From: Bispira polyomma
Lineage: Eukaryota
Length of the DNA stretch: 64,000 nt
Direction of reading: 5' to 3'
Assembly (NCBI GenBank): GCA_965649765.1
Contig: OZ287755.1
Coordinates: 30,566,001-30,630,000, forward strand
Positions 939-47,289 of this stretch are shown piece by piece (position 1 is the first letter of the stretch; the number at the start of each line of letters is the position of its first letter). The notes beneath the pieces are model-generated. The model was not told where the DNA came from, searched no databases, and saw nothing but the letters and a program-made list of their open reading frames with translations. The translations under genes and the position numbers were made by a program.

Positions 939-2186
939 ATGGGACGTATTAAAAAGACACCTTCGGACGTAGCAAAGAGTACGGGGAAAGGACGGCCAAC
1001 AAGGAACACAGTGCAAGTGGAACAGGTATCAGACAGTATAATTAACAGTCTTAATTTGCCATGTTATCAACCCGACAATTCACAGTTTGCGTCTCCAATA
1101 CTCGCAACAGGTACACAGGCCCAAGCTACAGCCACGGCTCATTTGTTCTCGGATTGTCCAGAACAGTTCGGCCAATGGGGTTTCCCTGTTTCCACTGCAC
1201 CGACGGCAAGTAGTGAAATAACCCTCATGATGTCAGTACTTCGACGGCTGGAGGAGTCAAACTCGGAGATTACTCGGAGACTTAACCAGATGGAAGCCCG
1301 TGAAGCTTCAAAGGTGGCAACCCACGTACAGCCGAGTCAAATCCAATCTACAGGGCCACTCACCAGTAACCAGGTCGGGACACTCAACACAGTCCCTGCG
1401 ACTGGGGCGAATCTTCAGCTACCCAATCCGCTCCAACCACCCAGCACAGGGCAGCAGCAATATACCAAGGACGGGATTGTTCCAACAGTGGAAACTCTGA
1501 AGTCACTACCTGATGTGCAGTTGATGGTGAATCAATGTCTAGCACAATATGAGTCGCACGCCCAGTGCGCCCTAGCCCAAGGTAAGCGACAGAAATCAGG
1601 GCGTTTTAATAACACGGACATCGCGTCAGCAGAACCTAAGTTTGGATGGGCCAATGAAGGCTGGGTCGGTGGGGCGACTCGCAAGCGGCCTATGTATGAC
1701 GACTTGTCACTTCCCCAGTGGGCTGCAGGACAGTTAGCAAATGCCCTTCAGGTCACAGATCCGGTAGCTATGAAGGCGATGGTAGAGCAGGTGATATTCT
1801 CGCTTCGGGATGCAGCTTCCCTGCCATGGGAAGTTGTGCGCACTGCGTGGTCCATGAGTATGCATGAGGTCGAAGCTGAGCGCTTGGGATGGAGTGACAC
1901 AACTCAGTGGGCACTAAACCGTATTCTGCCCTCCCAGACGGCGATGGTGAATGGAAACACGACTTTCTCATCCAATTCTAACTCCAACTCCCATAATTCA
2001 AGTCAAGGGCGAACAATTTGCAAGCTATTCAATGCAGGAAAATGTTCTCATCGGGCTGACCATGGCCAATATCGCCATCAATGTTGGCATTGTGCCACAG
2101 TTCTCAAGAAAGAAGCAACACATCCGGAATTCAAATGTTATCGGGCGAATTCGACCAAACAGGCAGAAGGAGCAGTCAATAATTAG
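939..2186 (+). CDS. Gag-like ORF1 of YR retrotransposon with C-terminal Cys/His zinc-finger region
   Basis: 415-aa ORF ending CKLFNAGKC...HQCWHC...HPEFKC; the same C-terminus is at 16763-17155; lies upstream of RT. Confidence 0.85.
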   Translation: MGRIKKTPSDVAKSTGKGRPTRNTVQVEQVSDSIINSLNLPCYQPDNSQFASPILATGTQAQATATAHLFSDCPEQFGQWGFPVSTAPTASSEITLMMSVLRRLEESNSEITRRLNQMEAREASKVATHVQPSQIQSTGPLTSNQVGTLNTVPATGANLQLPNPLQPPSTGQQQYTKDGIVPTVETLKSLPDVQLMVNQCLAQYESHAQCALAQGKRQKSGRFNNTDIASAEPKFGWANEGWVGGATRKRPMYDDLSLPQWAAGQLANALQVTDPVAMKAMVEQVIFSLRDAASLPWEVVRTAWSMSMHEVEAERLGWSDTTQWALNRILPSQTAMVNGNTTFSSNSNSNSHNSSQGRTICKLFNAGKCSHRADHGQYRHQCWHCATVLKKEATHPEFKCYRANSTKQAEGAVNN

Positions 2187-2216
2187 GACATTTGCCGACG
2201 ATCAAGAAACGGGACA

Positions 2217-4568
2217 ATGGAAGAGCATGTTAAGGGCAGTAATAGTAAAAGGAGTTTAGGAACTTTTAGAGATTTAAATAGTGATTACTTAAGTTATAAC
2301 AGTTTAACAGTTTCTAGTATGTATGATAACATATTGAACCAAGAAAGGTTTTCAGAAACACTTGCTTATGTAGAGACACCTCTAATAGATGTTGGAAATT
2401 ATATTGACTTTAATGAACAGTGCAAGGCAGATGACAATGCTTTGAATGTGGACATATCTGTCAGTAATGACAATTGTGTTTGTGAAAATCATAATGTACC
2501 CTTTCAGATACATGAGGCTGCCAACAATGTCCCCAAGGTAAAACTGGTTACTGCCATTGTGCATGAAAATATTACATATTATGATTCAACTGAGAAGTCA
2601 CAAGCTCTTGTTTATAAAAATTTTAGTCAGGATCAAAAATTTAGGGAAAGATTTGGACACGCATATGTACAACATATGGAAAATGTAATTGATGAGCTAA
2701 TTAAGAGCAGTGAACAATCTGAGAAGAAATTAGGTGGAAATGTTAACTTAACTTAACTAACACATGTAATCTTGGAAACAAGGTAAAAAATCTCATGACG
2801 TCGTGCGACTTCTCCAACCAAATTTTTCAGGCGCTGGGGCAAGAAGTTGTCCCAAGAGTCCAGGGCAGTAAGAATGTCAAATTTCCTCCAAAAACTAAGG
2901 GTTTCTTAGCAATTTCTGATACAAAATTTGAATTTATTGGTCCAGATAGATTACCAGTTCACATTACAACAGTTGATCAAATAGTAGAGATAGCTGAAGT
3001 TATCAGAGATTTTGGATGCCCCAATTATAGGGGAGCACGTATCCCACTTAAATCTGGTCTTAAAATTGAAGGTTGGTGAAAAGGCACTGGAAGATTACCC
3101 TGATAAACTTTTGTTACAATACCTGAAATTCAGGTTTCCGTTATCTCTTACTCAACCAGATACACTTAAGGTTAAGGGAACCAAGAATCACTATGCTGCC
3201 CTTCAACATAAAACAGCAGTAAGGAATTACATCAATAAAGAAAAAGCCAATGGAGCTATGTTAGGCCCAGTAAGCACTGTAAAAAGTGAACATTACCACT
3301 GTTCCCCACTGTTAACACGTCCAAAAGATTCGGATAAGCGAAGGGTCATTCTGGACTTGTCATTTCCACATGGTGAGTCAGTAAACGATAACGTGAATAG
3401 AAAAGAATTTGATGACATAGAATTCAACTTAAAATTTCCTAATATAGACGATATTGTAGATGAAATACGCAAAACAAAAGATGCAAGAAGTATTAAAACT
3501 GGACGTAGCCAGGGCGTTCAGAAATTTGAGAGTGGATCCAGTATAAACTTGGAAGGCGAAAAATACATAGATCCTGCGGTAGCGTTCGGCTGGGTCCACG
3601 GCTCAGCCGCGTTTCAGCGTTGCTCTGACGTAGTAGCTTTCAGAATGAGGAAATTAGACCATAGATGTTTCTGTTACATCGACGATTCAGAGAAAGCATT
3701 TGCTGATTTATATAACCTCGTTGAATCCCTAGGATTTCCTATTAATCTGGATAAGCTTTCGAAACCTGGCAAGCAGGTCACTTGTCTTGGAATAGACATA
3801 GATATCGCTAAAGGTATTATTAGCATTACTGAAGAAAAAATTAAGGAAACACATGACATATGTGTACAAACGTTGAAGAAACAGTGGATTTCTAGGTCAA
3901 AATTTCAGTCTGTTTTGGGCAGACTATTATACATTCATAAATGTGTCAAGCCAGCGCGTATTTTCATTAATAGGTTACTGATGGCTTTTAGAAATAACGC
4001 TAATGCCAAACGTTTAAAAATTTCTGAAGAAATTAAGGCAGATCTAGGCTGGTTTGTTCGGTTTCTTCCCAACTATAACGGGATTACTTACATTGAACCC
4101 GTTGTCGATAGAGTAAATGATGTTTTTATAGACGCCTGCTTAGGGGGCGTGTACATGAACCAGGTATATGCATCACCCCTGTATAATATTTATGGACAAA
4201 AATTGATGATTGTACACATAGAAATGCTTAACATACTGCTAGCCATTCGAGTATGGGGCGTTCAGTGGGCGCACAGGAAGGTAATTATGAACTGCGACAA
4301 CATGGCTGTGGTTCTGGTCGTCCGCAGTGACAAAACTAAGGACAAATTCTTAGCACTTTGTCTAAGAAATATATGGCTCTTAACAGAAACTTATGATATC
4401 ACACTTGAGGTTAGTCATATCATGGGGAAAAAGAACTGTATAGCTGACACATTATCAAGATTATATTCTGAGAGTCCTCCAAGAGTTAGGGAAATTGAAA
4501 TACTAAGGCAAAACTACATATGGCATAACGTGCCCATACACTTCTTTAATGTGAACTTTGATGTGTGA
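2217..4568 (+). pseudogene. pol (variable N-terminal region + RT + RNase H), frameshifted
   Basis: SPLLTRPK..RVILDLS, AFGWVHGS, YIDD, TCLGIDID; RNase H DAC..EMLN..CDN..HIMG..N..AD.LSR; split over ORFs 2217, 2795 and 3012. Confidence 0.92.
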
Positions 4569-4574
4569 TTTTAG

Positions 4575-5550
4575 GTTCCACAAAGATTACACAGACTTAC
4601 ATGGAATCAGCCTGGAATAGACTAAATACAGCTCTACGTCCAAAAACATTAAATGCTTATACAAACCAGTTTAAGACATTTGTGGCATTTACATGCTTTG
4701 CAGGCATTCATACTATGAACACTCATGTTGTTATTGCATTTCTAGAATATTTAGTGCAAAATGGAAATTTACCTGGAGCTGTGAACAATTATGTAGCAGC
4801 TATCAGATTCATGGCCAGAAAGTATGGCTGGAATATGGACATATTTGATAACAACACAATTTCAATGTTTACGAGGAATTTAACACACAATTCACAGTTT
4901 AGACCTCAGCCAAGAGGCATTTTTAAAATTCAACATTTAGGGCTGATTTCACAGGGCTGTGTCATATTGCAAGATCCAATTCTTTTTAGATTCATTTTTC
5001 TGCTGTCAATCTTTGGGTTTCTGAGAATATCCAATGTGGCCCCTCACTCTAGGGCAAAATTTGATTCATCACGACATTTATTGCGACAGGATGTAATTTT
5101 TGGCCCACCAGGGGCTCACATAATTATTAAATTGGCCAAAAACTTGCAAACCAGAACAAAAGCCCATGTTATACAAATTCCTGAGCTTACAAATCGGGTA
5201 GCTTGTCCAGTTACAGCACTCAAGGAACTTTAAGTACAAGAGATTTGAACCCTAGTTCACCCCTGTTTGTAACCAAAGATCCACCACACCACCCAGTTAT
5301 TGAAACTCATGTACGTTCTGCTTTATCCTCAGTTTTGGAACATATTGGCTTTCCAACAAATTAACATAGTTTCCACACTTTTAGAAGGTCTGGGGCCACC
5401 TTTGCTTTTAATAATAATGTTTCACTCCAAAATATAATGGCTCATGGGCTGTGGAGGTCGTCAGTAGTGTGGACATATTTGCACAAAACTTCACAGGCTG
5501 CCTCCACGGTTCCTCTCACCTTTGCCTCTGCTTTCCCTCCTCACTTTTAG
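4575..5550 (+). pseudogene. tyrosine recombinase of E1
   Basis: FGFLRISN (catalytic R). After the stop at 5233, FHTFRRSGAT...HGLWRSS..WTY supplies the HxxR and Tyr motifs. Confidence 0.92.
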
Positions 5551-6491
5551 TTTGGCTTGGGTATTTCAAAATATCTGCAAATATTTTTAAAATCTTTACA
5601 TTTTACCCTGAAACTGTATATAGATCACTAACGTGTAAAATAAAATATCTCAAACATTGACCTTCAGCAACACAGTAGGCCACTACCTAATAACCTTTAT
5701 ATGACCTCTATTCCTAACTAGGACAACTGTATATGCTACACAACTTTAGAAAAGGTGTATATTATTTTGTATGATTTATTTTTACAAATATGTTGTCATA
5801 CTTTATAAAAAACATGAATGTATTGTTACATTTTGTAAAACATTTGTCAAACATTGTTAAATTTGGAATATATTAACTTTATGTATTTTAGAAAAGTAAG
5901 AGAGTTTATTGAATTTTAAAGAAAAAATAAATCATACAAAATAATGCTGAAGTCTTTGTTTGTCGGTGGTGTGTAAGATTGTAGTATTGATTCATTAAAT
6001 TTTTTATGTGAAATGTGTCACGTTTGTGAAGGATCTACTTGGAAAAATAGTCATATTTTTCTTACAATTTTATGCTTGTTAGATATAATCGTTTTTCTGA
6101 AAAATTGTTAAAACAAATATTAAAATTGAACTTTAATTGTTATATAATTACTCCTTTATCATTTTACTTATAATACAGTAAAACTCGTGTTTAAAAATTG
6201 ACTGAGGTCTTAATAACAAAAGTAGTGTAGGTTTAAGACAGTTTTTCTTTTATAATATGGGTTTAGCGGAGTGTTTGTATGGTAACCCCTGGGGTTAGCA
6301 AGCTTATTGCTGCCCCCTTTTAGAAAACTCAAAGCGACCTCAAAGCTAAAAAATTAAGATTTCCTGCTTCATTTACTGTAGTTTTTTATTTTTATCTTGT
6401 TTTACAAACTGTTACATTCTATGTGATAATTCCGAGAAAACACTGGATATCAAGAATTGTACACTAATGACTAGACCAGCTACGTGTCGGT

Positions 6492-7060
6492 CCTGGTCAC
6501 ACCTACACGTTCTAGAGCTACGTTTGTGTCATGTTGTGTTAATTGTGTGAATGTTTTGAAATGTAGCAGGAAGTGGGGATAGCTTCTGTGATAGTCTTGT
6601 TACGTTGTGCAACGGATGATATCGCCCTGGAAACGTCCCCGGTTTGTCTTTTGCATATACTGTTTCTAACTGTTTGAAACATTACAGTCACACCTCCCAT
6701 CCACATTTCTCTGTTCATCCCGGAATGTTTCCAAAAGTAGCATAGACGTAGCAATAAGTAGCTCTATATAGTAGTAGGTAGCGAGGAAGTCCCAGTAAGT
6801 AGTGAGATTGTCTCCAATCGTCTCCGCTAGTCAAAAACGTTTCACTAAGTTGCAGAACGCACCAGTAAGTGGCAGTATAGTAGCTCTACATAGCAGAAGG
6901 TAGTGATATCCTACCAGTAAAGTGTTAGATTTTTACCCTCGCTTCATGTGTACAATCGACTACCCCTTTATGGAAATGATGTTACTTTAATACAATACTA
7001 CCACGTTTTCAGTGTATATTGCTTAGGTTCGTTGGGGGCGTTAACACATGTGTGACTAGG
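6492..7060. mobile_element. non-autonomous DNA transposon (MITE), same family as 40123-40728
   Basis: termini CCTGGTCACAC / GTGTGACTAGG; internal sequence collinear with 40123-40728. Confidence 0.8.
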
Positions 7061-11099: not shown

Positions 11100-12420
11100 C
11101 TGTAAACTTATAGTGACTGGTAAATTGTTCTATGGGATGCCTGGTAAGAATGCTGAAACACAACAATGAGGCAAGTTATCGGGGCTGCCAAAGGTTTACA
11201 GCTTTGTATGTAGTAATGTTGAGCTTGAAAATGATGCAGTACTCGACAGGTAACCAATAGAGCCTTTTAAAACAAGGAGTCGTACTGACGTGAGATCCCA
11301 CATGGCACACAACTCTGCACAGGTGATTCTGGATTGACTGTAACCTTTGCCACTTGTACTTCTTTAGTTGATGAACTACAGAATTGCAGTATTCCAATCG
11401 ACTGCTGAAGAGCACATTTGCCAAGGAGGCTAATAGGAAACAGTGATTTGAAGTTATCACTGTCGTTTTAGTGCCGAATAGTATCAATTCAGTTTTGTCA
11501 GGATTGAGTTTGAGTTTGGCCAATTCGTCCAATCTTGTAGAGTCAAGACATCAGCCAAGCATGCTGAGTTGATCATGTGTCGTTAATGATAGGTAGATTT
11601 AGGTGTCATCGGCATACATGTGATATTTGATATTGAGTTTATTAACACCATAACTCGGAGGAGAGGTGTAAAGAATAAATAGGAGTTGCCCCAAGATGGA
11701 TCCCTAGGTAACTCTATCAGGTAAGTCAAAAGAAATAGACAAATTTGATTTAACATTTTATGGTTGATGGTATCAAAAGTTGCTGACAGGTCCAGCAGTG
11801 TCAGAGCATTAATTTCACCTTCATCAAAAGCAAGTCTGTTGTCATTACATATATATAATCGTGCACTTTCAGTTGGGTGGTGTTTTCCATCGGCACACTG
11901 CTGTATGTTGGTTGCATGTTGTGTTTGAACATGTTCCTTCATTAATCAACAGCCTTTTCAATAATTTTGGAAATATAAATTAGTTTAGTTTTATCAAGGT
12001 AATGGTAATGGTAATTATGGAAGTAGAGGGTGTAACAAAAGTAGTTTTAAAAGATAAGATAAGAATTCAAGACAATAGGAAAGAACAGAAGCAGAAATGG
12101 GATCTACATCAGATGATTTGAGAGGGGATAAGGTGATAAGTTTAAGTACATGGCATGACAGTGATTGCGCTTAAGAACATGGTAAGAAGGGTTTGAGGGC
12201 TACAGTTTTAGCACAATCCTAGGCAAGGGTTTATGTCATTACTGATGGAAACGCCAACACTTTGCAGTGAAAGATGTGGGCAGATTGATGTAACTTTGCA
12301 AGGTTTTGTTCATTAAGGTAGTCGTATATTGGTATTGCAACAGTTTCCTTAATCAGTTGATAAACAAGGTTGGAGATTGGTCTATAATTTTTGTTGGCTT
12401 GTTCTTGCCAATAAATACAA
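11100..12420 (-). mobile_element. L2/CR1-group LINE RT remnant
   Basis: NYRPISNL, LLDLSATFDTINH, LKLNPDKTELILFG, RLEYCNS and WLPV in broken frames. Confidence 0.85.
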
Positions 12421-12743
12421 TTTATTATGTTGGTAATAGGAGTGTCCAGACATTCTGTCAGTTGTGTAGTGGTAACAGTTGTGTAGTGGTAACAGTTGTG
12501 GGTTCGATTTTCAGCCTTAGCCATTATGTCGGAAACTTGGCAGTATACTTTGCTGAATGCTGGTGGTTTGCAGTGCAGAATTTATTGACCAATTATCCTG
12601 TACTGCTTACCTCAGCCAATAAACTTCCTGTCTCAATATAATACTTAACCTGACATTATACTGAAAATAACATAAATACAAAATAATAATCTTACCTCTG
12701 TGTAAGTTACAACTAGACAAGTACATGTAAAATGGAATCCTCA

Positions 12744-13009: not shown

Positions 13010-14360
13010 ATATAATGATGAAAACAATTATCGCCCTATTGCCCTGGTCACTACTTGTTCTAAGCTGTTTGAGTTATTCCTGTTAGACAATATAGACATG
13101 TATCTGTAGACAACTGACAACCAATTTGGCTTTAAGAGCAACCATGCCACTGACATGTGTATTTACGCAATTAAAAGTACCATTGACTATTACAGAAAAT
13201 TAAATAGCCCTGTTTTTACTTGTTTTTTAGATGCCTCTAAGGCCTTTGATCGTGTCAATCATTGGATATTGTTTAATAAACTAATCAAACGTAAGATACC
13301 ACTATTACTTGTACGAGTCATTGCTTACTGGTATAGAAACCAACTGTTCTGTGTCAGATGGGGTACTCATGTGTCTGACAGTTTTAGTTCATGCAATGGT
13401 GTAAGGCAAGGTGGGATTCTATCCCCTAAGCTGTTTAATATTTACCTAGATGATCTGTCTATTGTATTAACTAAATCAGGCATCGGTTGCCATGTCACTA
13501 CCTGTGTTAATCATCTCTTTTGTGCAGATGATCTCTGTCTTCTAGCACCTACTGCGATGGGGTTGCAGCTACTTATGAACCAGTGTTATGACTATGGCTT
13601 AAAACATGATATACTGTTTAATGCAAAAAAATCTCATTGTGTAGTGTTTAAACCTAAAAGGTATAAATTAAATTGCCCTACAGTGTCTCTTGCTGATACA
13701 CCCCTGTTAAACGTTTCATCTGTAAAATATTTAGTTCTTCTAACTGACAGTTTTCAAGATGATGAGGAAATTACGAAACAAACTAGGGGGATTTATGCTC
13801 GTGGAAACACACTTCTCAGAAAATTTAGTCAGTGCTCCACCCATGTCAAAATTGAATTACTGCAGGCTTATTGTACTAGTTTTTATTGCTGTCCTCTATG
13901 GACAAGTTACAACATAACAAGTTTTAACAAAATTCGAGTGGCATACAACAATGTTGTTCGTAGGTTACTGGGATATGGATACAGAGACAGTGCCAGCCAT
14001 ATGTTTGTAAACAATGATGTAGATTGCTTGCGTGTTATTCTGAGAAAAAGTATATACAGTCTCAAAGTGCGCATAGAAACGTCCAATAACAATATCGTGA
14101 AGGCCTTGTGCAATAATTTTTATTTGAAAAGTGGCACAATAAGTAAATCCTGGCAAAAAGCCTTATATACATCAAGCTGATATATTTTGATCAGATATGT
14201 CTTTTATCTTGTATGTCATATATTTTAAAGCCTTTCATACAGAACCTTTTTACTAGTGTACATATTTATCATGTTTTTGTGTGATGCTATTTTATCTTGT
14301 ACTAATTATATTTTAATATGGGCCTTGGGCCTGAAATAAAGTCTATCTATCTATCCATCT
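13010..14360 (+). mobile_element. 5'-truncated RTE/RTE-X-like LINE; RT ORF 13155-14180
   Basis: NYRPIAL, FLDASKAFDRVNH, GVRQGGILSP, FCADD; 3' end AATAAA followed by (CTAT)n. Confidence 0.9.
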
Positions 14361-15976: not shown

Positions 15977-16189
15977 TGTATAGCACAAACACATAAGGGT
16001 TCTGATAATTCAGTTCAATAGTTAGTTTATACCTTAACCCTCAGGGAATGAACCTGACACTAAAACTTCAGGAGCATTTACTAATCAATAACCAATCACA
16101 TTCATTCCACCAATTGCTGGAGCACAATTCACAATTGGGGGGGGGGTCATTCATATTGAGACCACATCACATGAAGGAACACAATAGAA
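15977..16189 (+). repeat. E2 terminal repeat A1
   Basis: near-identical to 20776-20984. Confidence 0.95.
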
Positions 16190-19100
16190 GTGTGACAAAA
16201 TCAACCTTTTAGGCATCCATTTTATACATGATTTTACATTTTTAGTCTTTATTTATTTGTGTGTTTATATTTTTTAATTGTGCAACAAGCGTTAATACTA
16301 TGAAACATTTAAGAAAAACACCATCTCCAGGATCAAAGCCCGCTAAAGTCAAGAAAACCACAGCCAAGGCTAAAAACACTACAATTCAGGATCAGGTAAA
16401 CGGGAGTTTTATATCCGATTCAAGTTCAGCCGGATCTGAGTTTAACCAGTATGCTGGCTCCAATCCTATTCACACGGATGTTTATCACGCTAATCAAGCA
16501 CTCGGATCACTTGCTACCACTACAAGCGGGCCGGCAGGCGACACAGCACAAATGCTGGAAATCTTGAAGAGATTGGAGCAGTCTAACACGGACTTAGGCT
16601 GGCGCCTCCACAGGGTGGAATCCTGAGAGTCTCAGAATTCCACGCCCTTACTTTCATCAGTACCTAACATGGGGGCCACTGGGGTTCCTATCCCACGTAC
16701 TCAGCCATTACATACAGTACAAGACTCACAAACTCTCCCAAGGGCCACCAACGTTCACGACTATGCCAGAGACGGAATCGTCCCAGGGGTGGATGCGCAT
16801 ATGCATGAAGTCGAGGAGGGGTGGATGCGTATGTATGCATGAAGTCGAAAAGGGTCGTCTCAGGTGGGACAACACCATGCAATGGTTGCTAAATCGGCTT
16901 AGTTTGTCCCAGATGGCTATGGCGACTTCTAACACATCAGGCAAGCATAACTCAATGGACGGTAAATCTTTGAAAACGATTTGTAAACTCTTCAACAGTG
17001 GCAAGTGCTCGCATAATTCTGACCATGGCACATACCGGTATGTGTGTTGGCACTGTGCCACGGCACTACATAAAGATAGCCAACATCCAGAATTTAAGTG
17101 CTATCGTTCCAATTCGTCCAAGCAAACCGACAGTAGGACTCTGCAAAACAGCTAGGTAATTTACCGACAACCAGTAGATCAGCACAGGGACGTGTATAAG
17201 TTGAGCGGAAAGGTGGTAAATAAAAAAGATCTGAGAATTAGGAACAGAAATCATGAATTTAAATTGTTTATTAATGTTTCGGGAAGTCGGACAGATGTAA
17301 ACAGTGTTAATGCTACAAATTGGTGTCAAAATGATGATACTGGAGAAAGTACAAAAGATGTAATTAAAGTGGTCAATGGTCAATCAGACCAAATAAATGA
17401 CACATTATTTAAAGGTAGTGATAAAAATAGAAATAGAACAGTGAATAGGTATTTAAAAGAACTGATTACTATTTGTCATGTAAATGTTAAATCTAGTGTT
17501 GGGATGAGAAAAGTACCAAATGTGAACTCCAGTGTTGATTATGTACGGAATAATGTGAATTTGTGTAATGCAAATGTTAAATCTAGTGTTATGATGAGAA
17601 AAGTACCAATGGAAACACGAGTGTTAAAAATGTATTGAATGATGTGAAATTAAATATTTCAGGCACAGACCCAACAGTATTTACATTTATTAAGCACGAT
17701 TCTAAGGCCCGTTTTCAGGAAGAACAACATAGCTGTGACAACAGACGTGTCAACATATTTTAGGATTTAAGGTACACTAACCAAACTAACACTGGAGTGA
17801 ATCATAATGTACACGACCACAGTACAGGTTTTAAGGCTTGTGTAGATACAAATGTTAATCAGAAACAATCGGGTTTTAGTGTCATGGTGGTCACTGCCAA
17901 GGTTTCTAACGGGTGGCACTGTCAGGGGATGGGGAAATATTTTCCAATAGTACATGTGGAAACAGATAATGCTGAAATTTCGGCATTTTATTGGCAACAA
18001 CCAAGTGAAGATCGGGTGCATTATAATTACATAAAATGCCAGGATTTGCTACATATTCCACTTCACATTTCTTACACCATGGAACAAGACTTGGCAGTGT
18101 ACAACCAAATTCAGCATCATGAATTTCCGAAATTTCTCCAGTCAGCAAAAAGGCTAAGGATTTTAATCTCCCTGATAAGGATAGGGGATTTATTGCTCTC
18201 TTGGCTACAGATTTCACTTTTTATGGCCCAGATAGGGATTTTAAAAAATTTGACAATATTGATGCGTTTATTGAAGGAGCAAACATTATTAAGGACACAG
18301 GCTGTTCTAATTACAAAGGGGCTCGGATTCCTTTGCTCTCTGACTTAAATGTTGAGGCTTGGGAAAAATTGCTCAGCGACTATCCTGATAAGTTACTTTT
18401 TCAGTATCTCAAATTTGGATTCCCACTTTCCCTTACTGATCCTGATCAACTTAAAATTACTGAAGTTACTAACCGCCATTCTGCTCTTCGCTAGGATATA
18501 TATACTGGACGTCACCAGAGCCTTTCGTATCTTAAGGGTGGACCCAGTCGACGCCATGAAGCTAGGTATAAAAGTTAAGTGTAATGGCTACATTGATCCT
18601 GCAGTTGCGTTCGGCTGGGTCCACGGCGGCGTTCTAGCGTCTCTCTGACATCATGTGCTCTGTTACATCGATGACTACATTGGTATATCCCCCAGGAACG
18701 ATGCAGATAGGGCTTTTCATGATATAACTGATCTGGTGACCTCATTAGGCCTTCCTAGCAAACAGGACAAGTTATCTGCCCCTAATACTAAAGTAACGTG
18801 CTTAGGCATTGATATTGACTTGAATGAGGGCGTTATCAGCATAACTAAAGAAAAAATAAAGGAAACCTATGACACTTGTTTACAAATAAGTAACAAAACC
18901 TGGATCTCGCGGAAAAAAATTCAATCTATTCTAGGTAAGCCTCTCTACATACATAAGCGCGTGAAACCTGCACGCATTTTTGTCAATAGACTTCTTGTAG
19001 CTTTTAGGAGTAACCCACTGACAAAAAGATTTAAGGTTATTGAAGAGATTAAGGCAGATTTGCAATGGTTTGTCATTTTCTTACCAACTTTTAACGGGGC

Positions 19101-20578
19101 TACTTACATAGAACCACTAGAAAAAACCCAAGGAAATGAAGTGTTCATAGATGCTTGCCTTACTGGTTTAGGCGGCATTTATGGCAAACAAATATATGCT
19201 GTCCCTTTTCATAAAAAAATAACCTTAATCTCACAATAGTTCACTTGGAGATGTTGAACATTCTGATTGCTCTCAGATTATGGGCAGTCGAATGGGCACA
19301 CTCTTGAATAAAAATAAACTGTGACAATATGGCAGTAGTGCTGGTTGTCAGTTCTAGTAAGACTAAGGATAAATGTCTCGCTCTATGCCTCCGGAACATA
19401 TGGCTGTTGTCAGCCAAATAAGATATCACACTCGAGGTCCAACACATTAGGGGCAAAAAGAACGTCATTGCAGACTACCTTTCTAGAATATATTCAGAAA
19501 ATCCAATAACTGTTGACATTAACAATGATGACTATAAACACCTCATCTGGAATCATATTCCACTAGCTTATTTTAATATAAATTTTACATTATAATTTAA
19601 GGTGCTTCGACTGTTACACAGCCACTTATGACTTCAGCATGGGACAGACTTAACACTGCTTTTCACCTAAATACTGCATCAACATACAGTAATCAGTTTA
19701 AGACTTTTTTAGCTTTCAATTACTTTGCTGGGATTCAAGCAGTTGACACACAATCATTCCTCGCTTTCCTAGAATATTTAGTACAAAATTCCCAAGGCTA
19801 TTGCAAACTATATTTCTGCTATTAATTTTATGGCTGGGAAATTTCATTGGGATTTGGCTATATTTGAAAACAACACGGTTGCTTTATTTATGAGAAGTTT
19901 GTCCCATAATTCACATTTCAGACCTCAGCCTAAAGGCATATTTAACGTTAAACATATGGCTCTTATCTCGCAGGGTCGCGACATACTTTCTGATCCTGTG
20001 CTATACAGGGCCAACATTCTCCTTGCTTCCGGGTTTCTTCGCATATCCAACATTGCTCCACACTCTAGGGCTACTTTTGACCCCTCCAGACATTTCTTAA
20101 GAAAGGATGTCATATTTGGCCATCCAGGGGCCCACATTATTCTCAAGTGGGCCACAAACCAACAGGATAGGTCCCAGTGACATGTAATTCAAATCCCCAC
20201 GGTTAAGAACATCATTCTGTGCCCTGTGAGGGCCCTACATAGATTACTCTCATCTAGACACCTTCTTGACTCTGCACTTTTGTTTGCAGAATCTCACCAT
20301 CCAAACTTCTCAGTCATAGACACTCACGTGCGTTCTGCACTCACTTCTGTGTTGACACATATAGGCATTCCACACAAATCACACACATTCCACACATAGA
20401 GAAGGTCAGGTGCCACATATGCCTTTAATAATAATGTTTTTTTTACAAAATATCATGTCTCATGGACTGTGGAGGTCATCAGCAGTTTGGACCTACCTTC
20501 AAAAAACACCACAAGCAGCCTCCACAGTCCCCCTTACCTTTGCCTCCTCTATTCCCCTAAATTTTTGACTTTGGGTTT

Positions 20579-20984
20579 GGGTGTTTTTAAAATCTGGATA
20601 TTTTAAAATCCTATTATACTACATTCATTGATAACATTACTTATTTTACTAATATGTACAGTAATAAAAACCTCAAACCTAGTTTTAGTCCCGTGTTCAT
20701 ACTTGCAAACTTCATTCAACTTTTTAGTTCTACAACCTAACTTTGGCCTTGACCTAATACTTCACTAGTGAACTGTGTATAGCACGAACACATAAGGGTT
20801 CTGATAATTCAGTCCAATAGTTAGCTTATACCTTAACCCCTAGGGAATGAACCTGACACTAAAACTTCAGAAGCATTTACTAATCAATAACCAATCACAT
20901 TCATTTCACCAATTGCTAGAGCACGATTCACAATTGGGGGGTCATTCATATTGAGACCACATCACATAAAGGAACACAATAGAA
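20579..20984 (+). repeat. E2 internal B1-A2 junction repeats
   Basis: B1 20579-20775 abuts A2 20776-20984 (GAACTG|TGTATAGC). Confidence 0.95.
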
Positions 20985-21080
20985 AAGTGCCCACCGCCAC
21001 CCCTTCTTCCACCAATATCCCTTATTAATAATAAGGTTTTCTTAAGGCACTTGATTAGGAACAACTCTGTTGTTTTTGTT

Positions 21081-21236
21081 AGCAGCAATGTGGACTCGTG
21101 ACCGTGTGGAGGTATGGTTCCCCCTTGGTAACTACCCCTTGGGTGGGCTCCAGGGAGGATTATTAGCTCTGCAGGTGGAACCTTCCTCTGCTAGGCGACT
21201 AGGTGCCACAAGTCACGAGCCCCCTGCATTGCTGCT
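21081..21236 (+). ncRNA. candidate structured RNA motif in the A2-B2 spacer of E2
   Basis: nested stems AGCAGCAATG/CATTGCTGCT, CTCGTGAC/GTCACGAG, TGTGG/CCACA, GGTTCC/GGAACC; CTAG-GCGA-CTAG GNRA hairpin; homologue with swapped outer stems at 48438-48595 (-). Confidence 0.75.
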
Positions 21237-21535
21237 TAGGCATTGAAACATAGCACACACTTTTAAGGATATTTATTTTATGATACTTTAGTCTTGCATA
21301 CCTAGGGCAGATTTAAAGGATTACTGCAGTATGTCTGTTAGATAGTCCCATTTTCATATGCAATAATTATATGTTTTACATTGATGCCTCCTGCGCGGGT
21401 TTTTTCTATATTTATTTTTGATATGGTAATAACCAGTAACATATGGTCAGTGATGAATTATTGGTTTATACACTTTGGAAGGACTTGTTTAATTACGTCT
21501 TGTGATATTTCTTTTTTATTTTCTGTACTTTGTAC

Positions 21536-21733
21536 GGGTGTTTTTAAAATCTGGATATTTTAAAATCCCGTTAAACTACATTCATTGATAACATTATATA
21601 TTTTACTAATATGTACAGTAATAAAAACCTCAAACTTAGTTTTATTCCCGTGTTCACACTTGCAAACTTCATTCAGCTATTTAGCTCTACAACCTAACTT
21701 TTGACTTAACCTTAATACTGCACTAGTGAACTG
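21536..21733 (+). repeat. E2 terminal repeat B2
   Basis: near-identical to 20579-20775. Confidence 0.95.
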
Positions 21734-23913: not shown

Positions 23914-26264
23914 TTTATACTACGCCAAAAGAATTGCAAATCCTTGTGTATGCGATTAATGTGGCGACAGAGCATTGCTCCTACAATGTCACCAAATTAG
24001 CTTCAATTTAAATCTTCTCACATTATATGACTTCCAAATTACCTGATCATGATAAAAGATAAAGTTTTTAATATCTTTTTAAATCATTTTTAATGGTTGG
24101 GACAGCCTTGAGAACATGTCCCTGTGTATCTTTATAATTTCCTATGGGGGTCTAATTATGCGTGCCTCGGGCTTACGTTGTAGAAGCTTCACTAGAATGG
24201 GGCGATCCCTACACATTTCCTACACATTTATTGCAATGGTGGTGCATTGCCACCTCGATCCTTGCATGTTTTGAATGTCCACCCCTGCTGTGAACGATCC
24301 CTTGCAAAAAGTTCAGTTTTAAACTAAATTTCTAGAAAGATTTGTGCGGTACTGTAGAATGCAATTCTTCACCCTATGTTCTTGTATGCATTTTATGTGC
24401 ATGCAACACTTACTAAACTCGTCCATAGGGCAATTGAACCAACCAAATTTTTACAGCGTTTTGACACAAATTCACAGGCATCTCGTTCGTTGATTGCTTA
24501 AGTATGATCCACCTTTAACTCACCCATTCACACATGAAACGGTACCCCCTTATTCTAACTGCTCCTTTTTACAAGACCGAGACTTCCCAACCAACTCCAA
24601 AAAGTTTTGTGATATATTTTATACCATGGCCAACTTTAGGTTTTTAGAATGGATCCTGAAAATAATGGAAATACATCACTCTGTACAGCACAAACTAATG
24701 TTCGTGATTTGTAAACCTGTAGTAAACATATTTCAACGTCAAAACTTAATAGAAAACTGAGTCTCACCAATCAATATATGAGTTTCTTACACCAGATGAA
24801 AAAAATTATTCAGTGGCATAAAACACTTTGCAGTGAGCTGCAGTGTGGTTTAATAGGGTCTTCTTACAGATGAAAAAAAAATTCAGTGCTATACATTCCA
24901 CCCCAGCCCCATAAGATGCATGTCATAATAACAGGCACTGGGATATATATATATATATATTTTTAAAGAGTCATATTATTATTACTAAAATGTTTGTAAA
25001 GTAACATGTTATTATAGATGAGTACACTAGACATTTAGAAATATACTTTTTAAATTACTCTACAAAGTTACAAGATTACTATGAATATACTTTTTAAAAA
25101 TACTATATAAAATTAGTATATGACTAGCAATACTTTGATTTTCTAATAGATAGTACCTCTTATACTTTAATGGAGGTACATTGTTAAAGCAATTGATTAT
25201 GATATACTCTTGAATAGATATGTGCAAAGTGAGAATCTAGCCTATAGTGCTTTACAATTTAATTAAAGTTTTATCAATTGTAAGCAGTTACTGCTTGGTT
25301 ATACGAGGACTTTGTAGTGTTATGGTTTAACAGAATAATAACTAAGTTATACAGTAACAAAACCATTCTATTGTTTTCAAAAAATTTACTTGTGCCGATC
25401 TGCCGGAACGTCTTGATATTGGCTCTTACTAAAATGACACAAAGTTTGTACACAACAAGGAGGCGTAAAAAAAAAACATTTTTAAAAGTTACAATAGCAT
25501 GCGCAATACGTGACTGCTTTGTGGGCAACAAAGCGGGAGCATGTCCAGCTCATATGTGAGGACCCTATGTGGCTGAGCATTACAGCCCATTAAGCTAATT
25601 ACATCACGCACCCTTATTTGCCAGGTCTGTAAACTTGGTTAAGCCAGTACTTGTAAAACTGTGACATTTGTTAGAAGAGCAGTGACATGACAATAGGGGT
25701 ACAATCTGTATGATTTTTACGCATAGTCCACCGTGTCACCTCCTGTCAGCATAATTTTCTAAAGTAGCCACAGATGCGAGGGGACTGCATCCACTGTGCA
25801 TCTAGTGCTCTCCTGTATGTTACCATCTGGTCTTATGTAAAACCCACTATGTCTCAATGACTTTGTTTTTCCATTCCTTCTGAAACTTGAACAACAGATG
25901 TGAGCAACATATCCCATCATGCTTATGGGTGGGAATTAAAGGGTAGGAATTCTAAATGTACCAGTAACTCTTCTGAATATTATTTTGAAAGTGAATTTAT
26001 GAGGGAAATGGAGAAAAGAGCGAGAATAGGATTGTGGTGGGCTGACGCCTCGGCGACAGTCTCCTCAGTTCTGGCACCAGGCTACTGGGGGGCCAATTAG
26101 GCCACATGGGGTCATGAGGACAACTATATAAGGGTTTGGTGCCCAACAAGCGCCATCATTAAAACAAATGCATTCTCAAAGAAAGAGTGTTTTAACAATT
26201 GGGGCTTTACTACCTTACGTTGATTTTAACTTTGGTTTTAAGCTTATTTTAAATACACCTGAAA

Positions 26265-27236
26265 ATGCCTAAAAGGGAATATCAGTGTAATGGGTGTTTG
26301 GGCAAGCATGAAAGGCCTGTTGGAAGGCGTTGTCGGTTTTACTTGGAGGACAGCGTCGCCGAGGAAGTGGCCATGGTTGATCCTGCTTCTACCAATGGTT
26401 TGTCTGATTCTGTGGGACAAATATTACAACAACTCCAGGTGTTGAATGAAAAAAAGGAAAGCATGGATCAATGTGTGCAAGTCACGGAGGCAGCGCTGTG
26501 TCCACCCAGCACCAATACGGCATGAACAAACCCTTCTATACCTAGTATTAGTGTTGCAAAAGTATCTGAGCCAGTAATAGAAACCGTGATTCCATCCCTA
26601 GAATTTTGCGTTCAAATGATCAAATACAGGCCCAGGTAGACCAGCGTTTAGTGCAGTTGCAGCAACTCAATGAGTTTACCGGAGGTAAATTAAAGTCACA
26701 GCGTGGTGGTGCTGAGGCCCCTATTAAGAAAAGCATTGATTGGCCTCAGAATTTTGTACTGTCGGGAGTGAAAAAAACCAGGCCCACGTACGATGATTTA
26801 ACATTAGTGCAATTTACTTCAGGATTTGTTTGATGCATACAGGAGCAAAAAACTTCGGAAGTACGGGAAGCAATGCTCGAGTATCTTGCCAATTTGATGG
26901 ACGACGCCCACAATTTCTCGTGGGAAGCAGCCAAGGCGTCTCACGCTACTTTGCTTACTAATATGGAACTTGACCACCTTAAGTGGACGGACGTTGACAA
27001 AGTAGACCGTGTCCGTAGAGTTCACGCTCAATGCCATATTCCAAACAGTACAAAAAATTCAGGCGCTTCAAAGTCCAATTCCAAGCCAAAAAGTCTGTCG
27101 TTTTTTCCAGGAAGGAACTTGTAAGTTCAACACTAGCAACCGTACTTCCAGACAGTTGTTCAAACACTGCTGCGAAAACTGTGATGGCTCACATCAGACT
27201 AAACTATGTACTAAAAAATCAGTAGTAAAAAACTGA
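26265..27236 (+). pseudogene. gag of E3 (N-terminal CxxC-H-RP-G-C motif, C-terminal zinc-finger region)
   Basis: CNGCLGKHERPVGRRC; KSQRGG..WPQNF..RPTYDDL; CRFFQEGTC...HCCENC..H; several stops and frameshifts. Confidence 0.88.
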
Positions 27237-27758
27237 GTGGCCACTGCAGTACTGCAGTGGACCCTAAACGTCAAAATGATGTGATATATTCTAGATTGGT
27301 GTACAACTCTAACTTTAAAGATTTTAAATTGTGTGATAAATTGTATGTTAAATATCTCATGTGTAACAGATATGTAAAAAGGTCCTATAGGGACATGGTA
27401 GTGGATGGGAAAAAAGGTAATTCTCGAGTCCATACTAGCCGACCCGTGGTGGGCGACATTGGGAGTAATAGCAGGGACCAAAACCCTCTGTTAGGTGTAA
27501 ACATAAAGTTGCCAACAAGTTGGCTGTGTCGAAAAAGAACAAACCAATGTTACAAAAAGGTGTGAAGTACACACAACAACTTCTCAATCAAGCCTCCCTC
27601 AAGGCGGACATGTCAATAACCATTCAATTAGCCAAGTTTCCCGTTCTGCTTATGTCACAAAAAGTGTGAACTCGGGAAAGGGGGATAGTCGCCCTAATTA
27701 TAGGGGCCTTCAGTTACCTGTTATTACTCAGCTTAATGCTAATGTGTAGGCTGAATAC

Positions 27759-29230
27759 TTGCAAGGTTATTGGGATTGGAAACTCCCTTTGTTAATCAAG
27801 TTTGGATTCCCCCTTGATTGTGATGACGTACACGAGTTTAAATCAGAACGTAATAATCACTCCTCAGCTGTACAATACCCACAACATGTGAGCCACTATT
27901 TGCGTGAGGAATGCAAATTGGGTGCTATGTATGGCCCTTTTGCCACACCTCCTGTTAACAAGTTACATACTTCCCCATTTATGACCAGGGATAAATCCAG
28001 CTCGTCTAACCGCAGAGTTATAATTGATCTCAGCTGGCCAGAAGGTCATTCGGTTAATGCTGCAGTATCCCCTAACTCGTATTTGAACAGAGAATTTATA
28101 CTCACATATCCATCGATTGACACTATAACAAATCAAGTTATAGCCAGGGGGAGGGGTTCTCTAATCTTTAAAGCAGACATCAGTCGCGCCTTTAGACATG
28201 TGACCATGGACCCTAAGGATGTCAATTTATTGGGACTTTATTGGGATGGGTACTATGTGGACGGCTCCCTCCCCTTTGGCTACAAGCACGGCTCAGCAAT
28301 ATTCCAGCGAATTTCAGACAGCATCCGGTTCATAATGAAGGGTGAAGGACACCATATATTGAACTATATCGACGATCTATTATGCTGTTCTACTGCCACA
28401 AAAATATACAAAACCTATTATCGCCTGCAAAGTCTTCTGGCAGAACTAGGTCTTACTCTGAGCCAGAAAAAGCTAGTCCCTCCAGCAACTCGGGTCACCT
28501 GTTTAGGAATTGACATAGACACAGTAGACTTTATCACCTCAATACCGGCTGAAAAGCTGGAGAATATACAAGTTATGTGTGATGAATTGGCGAGTAAAAA
28601 GTACTGTACAAAAAGAGAGCTCCAGTGTTTGCTGGGTTCTCTTTTATACATATCAAAATGTGTGAAATACTCCAGGTTCTTTCGTTCAAAATTTCTTCTG
28701 AATTTCGTCAAGACTTGCATTGGTTCAGGTCATTTTTGAAAAAGTACAATGGAGTGTCTTTCTTTTATCATAAACCTGTGAGTGCCACTTTAGAGTTGGA
28801 TGCTTGCCTAAAAGGAATGGGTGGAGTTTATGGGAAACAGGTTTATACACTGTCTCTGCCTCAAAATATGCATCACCACAACATAGCCTTCCTGGAAATG
28901 TTGAACATTCTAGTGGCATTAAGGTTATGGGCCCATCTCTGGAAAGGACAGAAAATCCTCCTGAAATGTGACAACCAGGCGGTGGTTAGTGTCCTTACTC
29001 ATGGCAGAACGCATGATTCTGACTTAGGCCTGTGTTCCAGAAACATTTTCATAGTGGCTAGCCACTTTGATGTTGAATTAAAAGTGATTCATATACTAGG
29101 TCAAAACAATACTGTAGCTGACTTGCTGTCTAGATGGACCAACTCTACACAGGACATTAATTGATTACATGCAGGTGACGTCCAGTGGTGTCCAGTGACT
29201 GAAAAACATCTGCTACTTAATGTGCATATA
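27759..29230 (+). pseudogene. RT/RNase H of E3
   Basis: SPFMTRDK, RVIIDLS, LPFGYKHGS, YIDD, LDACL, EMLN, CDNQ, ADLLSR. Confidence 0.93.
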
Positions 29231-29275
29231 TGATGACTGTTTTACACAATGCTACTGGTAGTGTTCTTTTTTCAG

Positions 29276-30205
29276 ACAAAAACCCAGTACAACAACTATT
29301 ATATAAAAAGGCAACAGAGAAACTACACCTGGCTTTCTGCAGATCCACTGCAAGATCCTATAATGCAATGTATAGAGTCTTTCTGGCCTATGCTGCCTTC
29401 ATGGACATGCAGTTAAATCAGGTGACTGTGTTTGACCTTTTGTTATTTCTAGAGTTTTTACAATTCAATAGTGTAAAACCAGCCCACATGGCTAATTATC
29501 TATCTGCCATTAAAGCTAAGTCAATAATTCACAATGTAAACATTCATGCATTTAGTGACCCCTGTATTGCATACTACCAGAAAGCAGTGCAGATGGCTGC
29601 TCCTCTGCATGTTAAGTTGAAAAAAATAATTGACATTCCAACCTTGGGAAAAATCATCCAAATATGTCATACCACATATATGGGCCTTGTCTTCAAAGCC
29701 CTTTACTTGCTTAGCTATTTCTCCTTCCTCAGACTGTCAAATCTGGTTCCACATTCTGTTAACCAATTTTCTGCTCTAAAACATTTGGCAAAAGCTGACG
29801 TCATGATTCATCATCAAAAAGCAGTACTTCTCATAAAATGGTCCAAAACAATGCAAAATAATAAACAAATTAAACTCATTACTGTCCTTAGATTGGTACA
29901 CTCTCCATTGTGCCCTGTTCGTGATCTAGAAGATATTTTAGCACTCACCCCTTCTGGACATAATTTCTCCCTTTTTCAATTTAGAACTAATGCACAATGG
30001 ACTCCCCTGACTGATTCCAAGGTTCGAATGCATTTCAAAAATATCCTTACTAGACTACGATTACAAGATTTAGGACTTACCTTCCACGCTTTCCGGCACC
30101 TGGACGTCAGATTGCGTGTGGAGGTACGTCACTGACACTGTTGATGCTGGCCATCAGGTGGCTGACACCTTTCGAAAACAGCTCTCTTCTTCCTTACCTT
30201 CCTAG
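29276..30205 (+). pseudogene. tyrosine recombinase of E3
   Basis: FSFLRLSN, WSKT, CPV, FHAFRH; WTSDCVWRY follows in a shifted frame after a deletion. Confidence 0.92.
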
Positions 30206-30982
30206 CCCTACTACATTGGAATTTGGCTGTTTCTAGTCATTTTCTAGCCTTTGTTCATGTATCTTTTTTTAAAGAACTTCTTTCTGTAGCAGTAATTGAA
30301 ACATTTCTATATGACTTGCTACCAACTTAGCGTGTGCTTAACTATTAAACAGTAATTGTAAAAAACTAGTACCTTACTTAAATACTACTTAAAGTATAGA
30401 GGTTTGCTTTACACTGTTAACTAGTAATCCAAGGCTTCTTGTCTTATAGTAATTAATTGTGTAAATTCAACTTAACTTTTTCACTTTAAGGTCACCTTTG
30501 TCATAGTAAATTAACTTGGACAATGAACTTTCTTTATCTAAGGTGACCTTACCAAATCACTTAGCAACGCTAAAACATTTATTTAAGGTGGCCTTAAGTC
30601 ACCATGAGTTCTGTAAATAATTGTTTCTAATTCTGGTGACCTTAAGATGCCTGTAGATAGTTTTAGTCTAACCTGTAGTTTAACAGTAAATGTTTTACCG
30701 CATTCTGTAGTATTATTATCTTGTCTTCTTGACCTCTGACCCCTCTGGCCTGGGGCTGGGAAATGTGGTGGGCTGACGCCTCGGCGACAATCCCCTCAGG
30801 TCTGGCACCAGGCTACTGGGGGGCCAATTAGGCCACCTGGGGTCACGAGGACAAGTATATAAGGGTTTGGCGCCCAACAAGCGCCATCATTAAAACAAAT
30901 ACATTCTCAAAGAAAGAATGTTTTAACAACCCACCCTTACCCTCCCATTTAACCGTTTGTTATAGTTTCAGGATGTGGTGCA

Positions 30983-31173
30983 AACAAGAGTGACAGCCGA
31001 CAGTGCCATCGTCAGTGAAGCTTATGGTTTAGCTAGCTTCTATGCACACTTGTGGTCCAGATCCTAGAAAAATTGTGTTAGGTAAGGGGCTATATTGCTT
31101 AGCCAAGTAAGGACACCTGGAGAAGCTAGAGGATCTTTGTAAATAACCTCGCCAACACGGTTTACCACTTGTT
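30983..31173 (+). ncRNA. candidate structured RNA in the A2-B2 spacer of E3
   Basis: closing stem AACAAGAGTG..AGCCG / CGGTT..CACTTGTT; CTAGCTTCT/AGAAGCTAG; TCCAG/CTGGA; GGCTA/TAGCC; single copy, so no covariation support. Confidence 0.5.
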
Positions 31174-32366
31174 AAGGTTCAAGGTTAAGGCCAGAGAGAC
31201 AATGTTTTAGACGAAACAGACATTTACGTTAAGATTTTTACTCTTTTATTTCTACAATTTACATGTAAAAGTGATTACTATGTTTATACACAATATTAGA
31301 ATTTTATACTTTGGCTTGCCTGTGTGTAAGTTTTTATATTCAAAGTCACTTTTACCTGTGTTAATGTTAAATATTATTCAAATCTTAGTATTGCTACCTC
31401 AGTGACGCTGTTTCTAGTCATTTTCTAGCCTTTGTTCATGTATCTTTTTTTAAAGAACTTCTTTCTGTAGCAGTAATGGAAACATTTCTATATGACTTGC
31501 TACCAACTTAGCGTGTGCTTAACTATTAAACAGTAACTGTAAAAAACTAGCACCTTACTTAAATACTACTTAACGCATAGAGGTTTGCTTTAAATTGTTA
31601 ACTAGTAATCCAAGATTACTTGTCTTATAGTAATTAATTGTGTAAATTCAACTTAACTTTTTCACTTTAAGGTCACCTTTGTCATAGTAAATTAACTTGG
31701 ACAATGGACTTTCTTTATCTAAATCACCATAAGTTCTGTAAATAATTGTTTCTAATTCTGGTGCCCTTAAGTTGCCTGTAGATAGTTTTAGTCTAACCTG
31801 AAGTCTAACAATAAATGTTTTACCGCATTCTGTAGTATTATTATCTTGTCTTCTTGACCTTTGACCCTTCTGGCCTGGGGCTGGGAAATGAGCATAGTTT
31901 GTAATAGTTTATTACTGGAGCAGGCTGGTATGAGATAGCCAGCACTTTAATGCTGGTTCGCACATTCAAGCCCAGCCCCATAATATTCAGGCCATGATAA
32001 AAAGCACTGGGATATATAAATTTTATTAAAATATTCATATTAATATTACTAAAATGTTTGACTAGCAATTTTAAAATAGATTGTAGCGCTTAGACTTTAG
32101 TGGAGGCACATAGTTACAGCAATTGATTATGATATGATATGATATATTGTTAGTCTAGTCTTACAAAATCTGCCAGATCTCTTTCTTATATGTTACAGAA
32201 TCCCTAAAATTGCAGAGACTAAAACTGTTAAAAACAGTAGCAAAAGTTGTACTGATAAAAGTGAAATGAAGTTTGACGAATCTAACAAAGCTAGCCATCA
32301 CCACGGGAGAAAACTGAAAGTGGTCAATATGTTTCAAGCAACTACAGAAACAACTACAGAAACAAG

Positions 32367-32700
32367 ATGAACGTATCAAATGACAGGAAGAATGCTAAAG
32401 CATGGAATATATTTCTGCCGTACCATCAGCCCAGAGTTCCCACGAGGCTGCATCGCAATCCAAACAGTCTGACGAACTTGCCGTCTTTTGAGGACCTGAA
32501 AATGGACTCCAAGATACAGGCAGAAGTTCAACGGAGGATTGGAAACTACGATGGAACCTCCAGACTGGAAAACAATAGTCTTCTTCTTAAGTCAGGGAGA
32601 TATAGGGCTAGTACCCATAAGGTAATGATCCCCGTTAATTGGCTACAAGATTACTGCACAGTCGTGCAAACAACCTACCAATGATGACATGTCCGTTATT
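32367..32700 (+). mobile_element. YR-retrotransposon gag fragment
   Basis: LPSFEDLK..IQAEVQRR..LKSGRYR..VNW, similar to the central gag of E1 and E3. Confidence 0.65.
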
Positions 32701-42830: not shown

Positions 42831-43261
42831 GTGTAGATTTACTAAAAATACCAAAAAATGTGTGTAGATGATATATGCCCAAAAGATTTAATAAATGTTT
42901 GTAAAATTAAATTCATTGTGTTGGCTTCTTTAATTTTACTTTCACCTTTTGACCTTCATCTCATTTTGCCATCTTTTCTTTGGTCATCTCTGACTTGATT
43001 GAAATTGTACTGCCGATTACGTAATATGGTTCTGGCTTTAGATAAAAGACAAGATTTGTCTTTTTGACAAAGTATTTTTTGGACCGATTGTTTCTTGTGT
43101 GGGTTTGTTTTTGTGCACATTTTGTGAAGGCTTCACTTCTTACTGTTAACTGGTGATTCCTGCCAACTGGGAGCACTCCATTATGTATTCAAGTGAGAAA
43201 TGTTACAAGTGAGAAACCAGATGTACTAAACAGTCCTCAGTGTGATGGCCTAATGAAAGCC

Positions 43262-46820: not shown

Positions 46821-47289
46821 ATACATATACATATATATATAATTAAAAATTGTAAAAATAAATATTTGGTTTTGACGGAGTGGAAATTGGGACATGTGAC
46901 ATGAATAAATATCAATGTAAACAGTCAGCTGACTTATATTAAAATTTAGTTATATTTGACTGGTATTATATAGTATAAATAGTATAGTAATAGTATCGCA
47001 CCGTCAGCACACAGAAATACAATCTATGTGGCAAAGGGCGTTTAACATAAATGAAATATATCTTTTAATGTTTGAGGTAATAAGTAGTAGTAGCAAAAAT
47101 GGCCTTCTGTGACGTCATGGAAATATACAAACGCGTTTGGGTGGCTGTGGGCATCATAGGCCACTGTTTTTGGTATTGATAGAAACATTGGACTCCAATT
47201 ACGATTATTCTTACATTAGTTTCGGAGGTTATACTTCATGTTGACAAATATTTGCAATATGTGTTTTAACAATATATTTCTTAGCAAAT

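Follow-up and report, generated by a model that had tools for sequence, protein, structure and literature searches.

Conserved phase-1 splice-like sites in Ngaro-like retrotransposons of Bispira polyomma suggest that the tyrosine recombinase is made as a spliced Gag(N) fusion

The 64-kb stretch of DNA analysed here (the window; positions 30,566,001 to 30,630,000 of contig OZ287755.1, assembly GCA_965649765.1) comes from the 1.035-Gb genome of Bispira polyomma and holds six retrotransposon remnants, E1 to E6, all on the + strand. Where they are complete, they consist of gag, reverse transcriptase and RNase H (RT and RNase H, together pol) and a tyrosine recombinase (YR), flanked by direct repeats in the split order A1...B1 A2 B2. 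Our subject is the way in which YR is expressed. An earlier note on this DNA, made from the letters alone, had proposed that it comes from a spliced mRNA. Indeed, we consider it very probable, from the pattern of conservation described below, that YR is made from an RNA without the C-terminal half of gag and all of pol, which would encode a fusion of the N-terminal part of Gag with YR, Gag(N)-YR.

E1 begins with a decayed repeat A1 (46-365), 66% identical to A2 in a self-blastn comparison. The N-terminal part of gag, which is the predicted coding exon 1 of 214 codons plus one nucleotide (nt), lies at 939-1581 and runs into a predicted splice donor, AAG|GTAAGC (1579-1587), in phase 1 and in the Gly codon before a KSG motif. 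The predicted intron (1582-4574) would take up the gag C-terminal helical domain, the Cys/His finger, the gag stop and the whole of pol. The gag stop is a TAG followed by G (2184-2187), with the next open reading frame (ORF) in frame, and is a candidate for readthrough; pol, with RT and RNase H (2187-4568), is broken by stops and frameshifts and ends in a TGA at 4566-4568, 6 nt before the exon start. The predicted acceptor, TGATTTTAG|G (4560-4575), also in phase 1, leads into the tyrosine recombinase as predicted exon 2 (4575-5550), where a premature TAA at 5231-5233 stands ahead of the H-x-x-R and Tyr residues. The repeats B1 (5558-5729) and A2 (5730-6072) follow, again by self-blastn.

E2 (15977-21712) is of E1's clade and has repeats A at 15977 and 20776 and B at 20579 and 21536; its donor was lost by deletion, and its acceptor has AAG where five of six family members have CAG. 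E3 (26033-31890) represents a distant family, with repeats A at 26033 and 30764, repeats B at 30226 and 31407 and the heptamer A_AAA_AAC at the end of gag (27227-27233); stops interrupt its predicted exon 1. E5 (41860-42900) keeps an acceptor and a decayed YR, the donor region being missing. E6 is present in part (62283-64000), with a donor and A_AAA_AAC at 62946, and its acceptor, TTTTCTAG|AT, was found past the end of the window (window-equivalent 65298), its position and phase being those predicted. E4 (32295-32684) consists of a single piece of gag from another family and lacks the donor Gly.

By their layout (gene order, split repeats, no methyltransferase) the elements are decayed Ngaro-like YR retrotransposons, as passages of PMC9210276, PMC3783388 and PMC4157794 define this class. 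The split direct repeats A1...B1 A2 B2 are seen in E2 and E3, those of E1 having decayed, and in the related loci L003, L038 and L075 the repeats are 95-100% identical (self-blastn); gag, RT/RNase H and YR follow one another in this order on a single strand. Relatives show the YR catalytic R, H-x-x-R, H/W and Y, and L038 matches PF00589 above the cut-off. In five long pol ORFs of relatives no methyltransferase family was found after RNase H at E<=0.1, and the pol of L038 ends 35 residues past its RNase H match. A Pfam scan of the listed ORFs gave no SGNH hydrolase, the region downstream of YR not being searched. A DIRS1-like element would need inverted terminal repeats and an internal complementary region, and these elements are bounded by direct repeats only. 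A PAT-like DIRS element needs, according to passages of PMC4157794, split direct repeats and a methyltransferase, of which the repeats are present and the methyltransferase was not found; the class may alternatively be a PAT lineage that lost its methyltransferase.

The earlier note had placed seven phase-1 sites in the window, and all seven are there. Three are donors in gag, namely CAAG|GTAAGC in E1 (1581|1582), GGAG|GTAAAT in E3 (26684|26685) and GGAG|GTAAAC in E6 (62373|62374); the other four are acceptors before YR, TTTTAG|G in E1 (exon start 4575), TTTAAG|G in E2 (19602), TTTCAG|A in E3 (29276) and AACTAG|G in E5 (41875). Both sites lie within the window for E1 and E3 only, with introns of 2993 and 2591 nt, and both copies are decayed. 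A GT within a GGT Gly codon is in phase 1 by construction. Any single site is not beyond chance, for the + strand of the window contains 31 copies of AGGTAA and 79 of a T-rich YAG. What is beyond chance, judging from the comparison that follows, is the conservation of such sites at homologous places across families.

This conservation was assessed in 106 sequences, the six window elements and 100 genome loci hand-chosen from three genome-wide YR searches (150, 133 and 150 matches), which gave over 10,000 first-look candidates. They fall into 37 clusters at 80% YR identity, here treated as families (22-79% between clusters, median 34%), and into six clusters at 50%. Both sites are held by 75 loci, with a spacing from donor to acceptor of 2.6-4.0 kb in every one, and both predicted exons are open in 42 of these. 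Family 8 (L038, G000:C4:30583299-30589099 and others) is young: at least 40 copies share 98-100% identity, their split repeats are identical, and by this measure the family is a very recent expansion.

For the donor, a protein-only rule fixed the residue: it is the first Gly that lies 3-9 residues ahead of KSG. An in-frame gag anchor was present in 84 of the 106 sequences (22 were left out for a frameshift, a deletion or no hit), and E4 has no qualifying Gly, which leaves 83 loci; E6 was treated as a separate family in this test. This Gly is encoded by GGT in 82 of the 83 loci; counted by family, the figure is 33 of 34. Among the controls, GGT makes up 33% of Gly codons, 45 of 159 in other Gly-Lys pairs and 10 of 25 at the Gly of KSG, while A|GGT|A accounts for 3.9% of 1900; in 56 other conserved columns the share of the modal codon is 0.26-0.61. 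Base -2 of the donor is A in 30 of 34 families, despite the residue being Gln, Thr, Gly, Ser, Ala, Lys or Arg, and base +3 is A in 32 of 34, despite a residue that may be Lys, Met, Thr, Ile or Asn; at base +5, G reaches no more than 17 of 34. Of the Gly-Lys pair that had been described as conserved at the donor, the Gly codon stands and the Lys, present in 26 of 34 families, does not: what is kept is a next codon starting with A. As far as codon usage can tell, then, the donor AG|GTR is conserved, with constraint on synonymous positions.

The YR anchor, from which the acceptor was measured, was located in 101 of 106 sequences. Exactly 62 or 65 nt upstream of it, 92 of these 101 loci have an AG (a YAG in 91), and so do most members of each of the 36 families. 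Phase 1 results from either distance, and in none of the 36 families is there a majority AG at 66-74 nt. The tract before the acceptor contains 53% T versus 30% further upstream, and AG dinucleotides are depleted at -20..-3 (5 observed, 34.5 expected). In the alignment, between-clade YR similarity starts at about the acceptor site. Of 120 database YR proteins, 21 reach the acceptor position, and 18 of these have I-S-G/D there; I-S-G/D is the translation of ATTTCAG and a free base, which is indirect evidence consistent with an acceptor. Conservation across divergent families, which the earlier note had claimed and had named for checking, is thus found at both sites.

Could such motifs be conserved for a reason other than splicing, be it protein constraint, RNA structure, packaging or an internal promoter, or else be unused relics? 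A T-rich AG is common in AT-rich DNA, and no processed copies were found (see below), which are points in favour of this explanation. However, it is synonymous positions that are constrained, and what they spell is exactly AG|GTA and T-rich YAG|G; at other synonymous columns the choice of codon is scrambled, and both sites are present in the young family. In our opinion these facts make an explanation of either kind very improbable.

The start of YR raises a second question. The earlier note held that a separate ATG of YR would speak against splicing, and no ATG of YR is conserved across families. From the acceptor to the first in-frame ATG there are 1-228 codons, many families having no early one; in family 8 this ATG is at codon 68-79, which is part of the SAM-like domain (17-86). 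It can be argued that the acceptor is real but is joined to another donor, for example in a 5' leader exon in the manner of env, that YR is translated from its own ATG, and that the donor in the middle of gag serves a different splice. Indeed, an ATG follows the acceptor by 2-3 codons in eight families and by 9 codons in four, and E1 gag has further AG|GTR sites. Yet a non-coding leader would have no need of an acceptor phase fixed at 1 in every family, an early ATG is missing in many of them, and the phase of the conserved mid-gag donor matches in 33 of 34. A different donor therefore appears quite unlikely to us.

The third alternative is the one that is found in print. According to Poulter and Butler 2015, as quoted in PMC13003380, the start of YR overlaps pol in the -1 frame and is probably reached by a frameshift; on this account, YR would be made by programmed -1 ribosomal frameshifting at the end of pol, and the splice-like motifs would be incidental. 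The published opinion finds agreement in our data in that YR is in the -1 frame relative to pol, with a short overlap, in 20 of the 33 families with a located pol end, E1 included, and in that these elements apparently do use recoding between gag and pol. On the other hand, 11 of the 33 families have a +1 or 0 frame and two are tied (some of these calls may be blurred by decayed copies), and the overlap is no more than 4 nt in families 1, 9 and 23 and absent in families 15, 16, 17 and 24. The heptamer A_AAA_AAC is in frame at 11 of 21 gag ends (counted as families) versus 0 of 33 pol ends, and other XXXYYYZ heptamers occur in only some pol-YR overlaps, differing among families. Hence the combination expected of a programmed -1 frameshift, a fixed frame with a conserved slippery heptamer, is not found at the pol-YR junction. 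Moreover, many families have 6 nt between the pol stop and the exon start, and when a stop stands 6 nt before a phase-1 acceptor the '-1 overlap' follows by arithmetic alone. A frameshift would also leave the constraint on the donor codon unexplained. We find it highly improbable that YR is reached in this way.

Recoding between gag and pol is a separate matter, and the group probably follows two strategies there, to judge from the gag ends. In the E1 clade (seven families) gag ends in TAG, with a G after it in 15 of 16 loci (at window 2184-2187 and the gag ends of L003, L006, L007, L019, L032, L033, L035 and L038), and wherever it was shown the following ORF continues in the same frame, which makes this a candidate for stop readthrough. 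In the other clades the end of gag has A_AAA_AAC, and pol is mostly in the -1 frame (11 of 14 families), as for a -1 frameshift. We also note that L017, L019, L038 and L075 have about 350-500 poorly conserved but open residues between the end of gag and the conserved RT region.

Returning to a spliced origin of YR, the proposal of the earlier note is thus supported, at the level that DNA allows, by synonymous constraint at the donor, an acceptor of fixed phase, the lack of a conserved ATG and a variable frame between pol and YR. Relatives outside this genome bear on it as well. We collected 18 metagenome loci whose YR is 27-44% identical to that of L038 (full-length matches), and all 11 of the 18 that could be anchored have a phase-1 YAG 53-65 nt upstream of the YR anchor. 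The whole of gag is available in four, and two of these have the homologous donor, AAG|GTAATT in L101 and CAG|GTAATA in L103. The other two, L106 and L107, form a distant group with a different gag.

Besides the early ATGs of eight families, several observations weigh against the interpretation that we prefer. In L106 and L107 the candidate phase-1 donor (a common AAG|GTAC) is located further downstream in gag, which suggests that the donor can move while its phase is kept. If a strict hidden Markov model column is used in place of the protein-only rule, the count of families with GGT falls to 24 of 32; the cause is the E3 clade, whose Gly-Gly aligns one residue off, so that the preceding Gly is taken there. 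A YTRAY branch point is found in 16 of 36 families, which is not above shuffles (mean 12, maximum 21). The choice of loci favoured open YR frames and diversity, and the families are mutually related, with just those six clusters at 50% YR identity. No processed genomic copy of family 8 was found among 60 hits to an exon-1 motif and 55 hits to an exon-2 motif: 48 pairs of these motifs are at least 3.3 kb apart and none abut, and of the unpaired hits that were fetched 19 of 20 run on unspliced, the remaining one being a chance match. For the other families the check covered the 75 loci with both sites, and none of these is a processed copy. Finally, protein database searches returned no Gag(N)-YR fusion protein, the matches reading as single ORFs called on contigs. 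In our opinion the lack of processed copies is weak as counter-evidence, given that the spliced RNA may not be packaged. The joint of the L038 donor and acceptor was also looked for, and it was not among 15 of 34 joints from three runs with flat, DNA-like contigs. Two single ORFs that run from Pol into YR, P0121 and P0122, one with an internal deletion in YR, look like decayed copies.

What the splice would do to Gag can be judged from a structural model of the L038 protein, with the reservation that it was built from 12 sequences and reaches a mean predicted local distance difference test score (pLDDT) of 54 and a predicted template-modelling score (pTM) of 0.30. It has confident helices at 74-109 and 185-214 and then the donor Gly216, two residues beyond the predicted helix end, in a low-confidence linker; past the linker come a helical domain (262-347) and a low-confidence Cys/His tail. 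The predicted splice would, on this model, cut between Gag modules. For the fold of this Gag there was no Pfam family, only unnamed clusters in the ESM Atlas and no Foldseek hit at E<=0.001. The description 'capsid-like' was set aside, since the best VIA Z of 6.4 belongs to generic helical bundles and no fold match stood out.

Taken together, we infer the following scheme of expression. The unspliced RNA would be translated into Gag and, by stop readthrough in the E1 clade or a -1 frameshift in the other clades, into Gag-Pol, and it would also serve as template for reverse transcription. From the spliced RNA about 2.6-4.0 kb would be missing, with the gag C-terminal domain, the Cys/His finger, RT and RNase H; this RNA would encode, from the start codon of gag, about 140-320 Gag residues followed by 320-340 YR residues. 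The Gag N-terminal helices might then bring the recombinase into the particle or to its target, which is the most speculative step.

Some other sequences in the window deserve mention. ORFs that by eye resemble RT or endonuclease fragments of non-LTR retrotransposons (those without long terminal repeats) lie at 13110-14180 and 55616-56068 and, on the opposite strand, at 11176-12581 and 34280-36076. Tandem arrays (63-nt and 21-nt) with inverted copies, at 45133-45505 and 47220-48048, are possibly a non-autonomous DNA transposon or a satellite. A repeat is common to 6852-7038 and 40476-40700, with 82-84% identity, and its second copy sits inside the pol of E5.

A partial precedent may exist, for Goodwin and Poulter are said to have reported in 2004 spliceosomal introns in some DIRS1 and Ngaro elements. 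In the literature searched, which was covered as titles, starts of abstracts and passages, we found no description of the gag-YR splice proposed here: the passages from PMC3783388, PMC8547959, PMC9210276 and PMC3266345 contain no mention of splicing, and in those from PMC6681497 and PMC4157794 the mention is unrelated. For every fungal Ngaro group, a passage of PMC3783388 gives YR as either in frame or frameshifted. To account for the expression of a YR without a start codon, the literature covered proposes a frameshift; a conserved splice would put one junction in its place. It is tempting to generalise that Ngaro retrotransposons make YR as a spliced Gag(N)-YR fusion, that the '-1 overlap' in print is a by-product of a pol stop before a phase-1 acceptor, and that the N-terminal module of Gag tethers or targets YR; we regard this extension as tentative, possible but somewhat short of an even bet. 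If it were true, the fusion could explain why ORF1 appears, in passages of PMC8547959, to determine the integration preference of the Cafeteria Ngaro elements, a connection that is our own. On our main proposal, the real enzyme would measure about 460-650 residues and have the N-terminus of Gag, a point of importance for anyone expressing YR or studying its choice of target. These elements would also be retroelements that keep pol in an intron and combine splicing with readthrough or frameshifting in one RNA.

A familiar arrangement is the subgenomic env RNA of retroviruses and Gypsy elements, in which an intron removes pol and exposes a downstream ORF, the donor usually lying in the leader or in the first codons of gag. 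Here, in contrast, gag runs for 140-320 codons before the donor, and it is a recombinase that the downstream ORF encodes. In their layout, A1-[gag, RT/RH, YR]-B1 A2 B2, our elements are like the Ngaro-like elements described in passages on Xenopus DIRS-53_XT (PMC9210276), Cafeteria Ngaro1-4 (PMC8547959) and newt Bou1 (PMC13003380), which likewise have no methyltransferase and a YR beginning at the end of pol. The published accounts differ from ours in that, as far as their passages go, a frameshift is proposed for YR (PMC13003380) or its frame is merely noted (PMC3783388), with no gag donor or YR acceptor. In the literature covered, the closest parallel is the plant Ty1/Copia element EVD, as presented in PMC5580714, which is similar in that a conserved alternative splice yields a subgenomic RNA from one transcript. 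It differs in that its product is Gag alone, made by splicing and early termination (PMC5580714), whereas the splice proposed here would bypass pol and attach the integrating enzyme to half of Gag.

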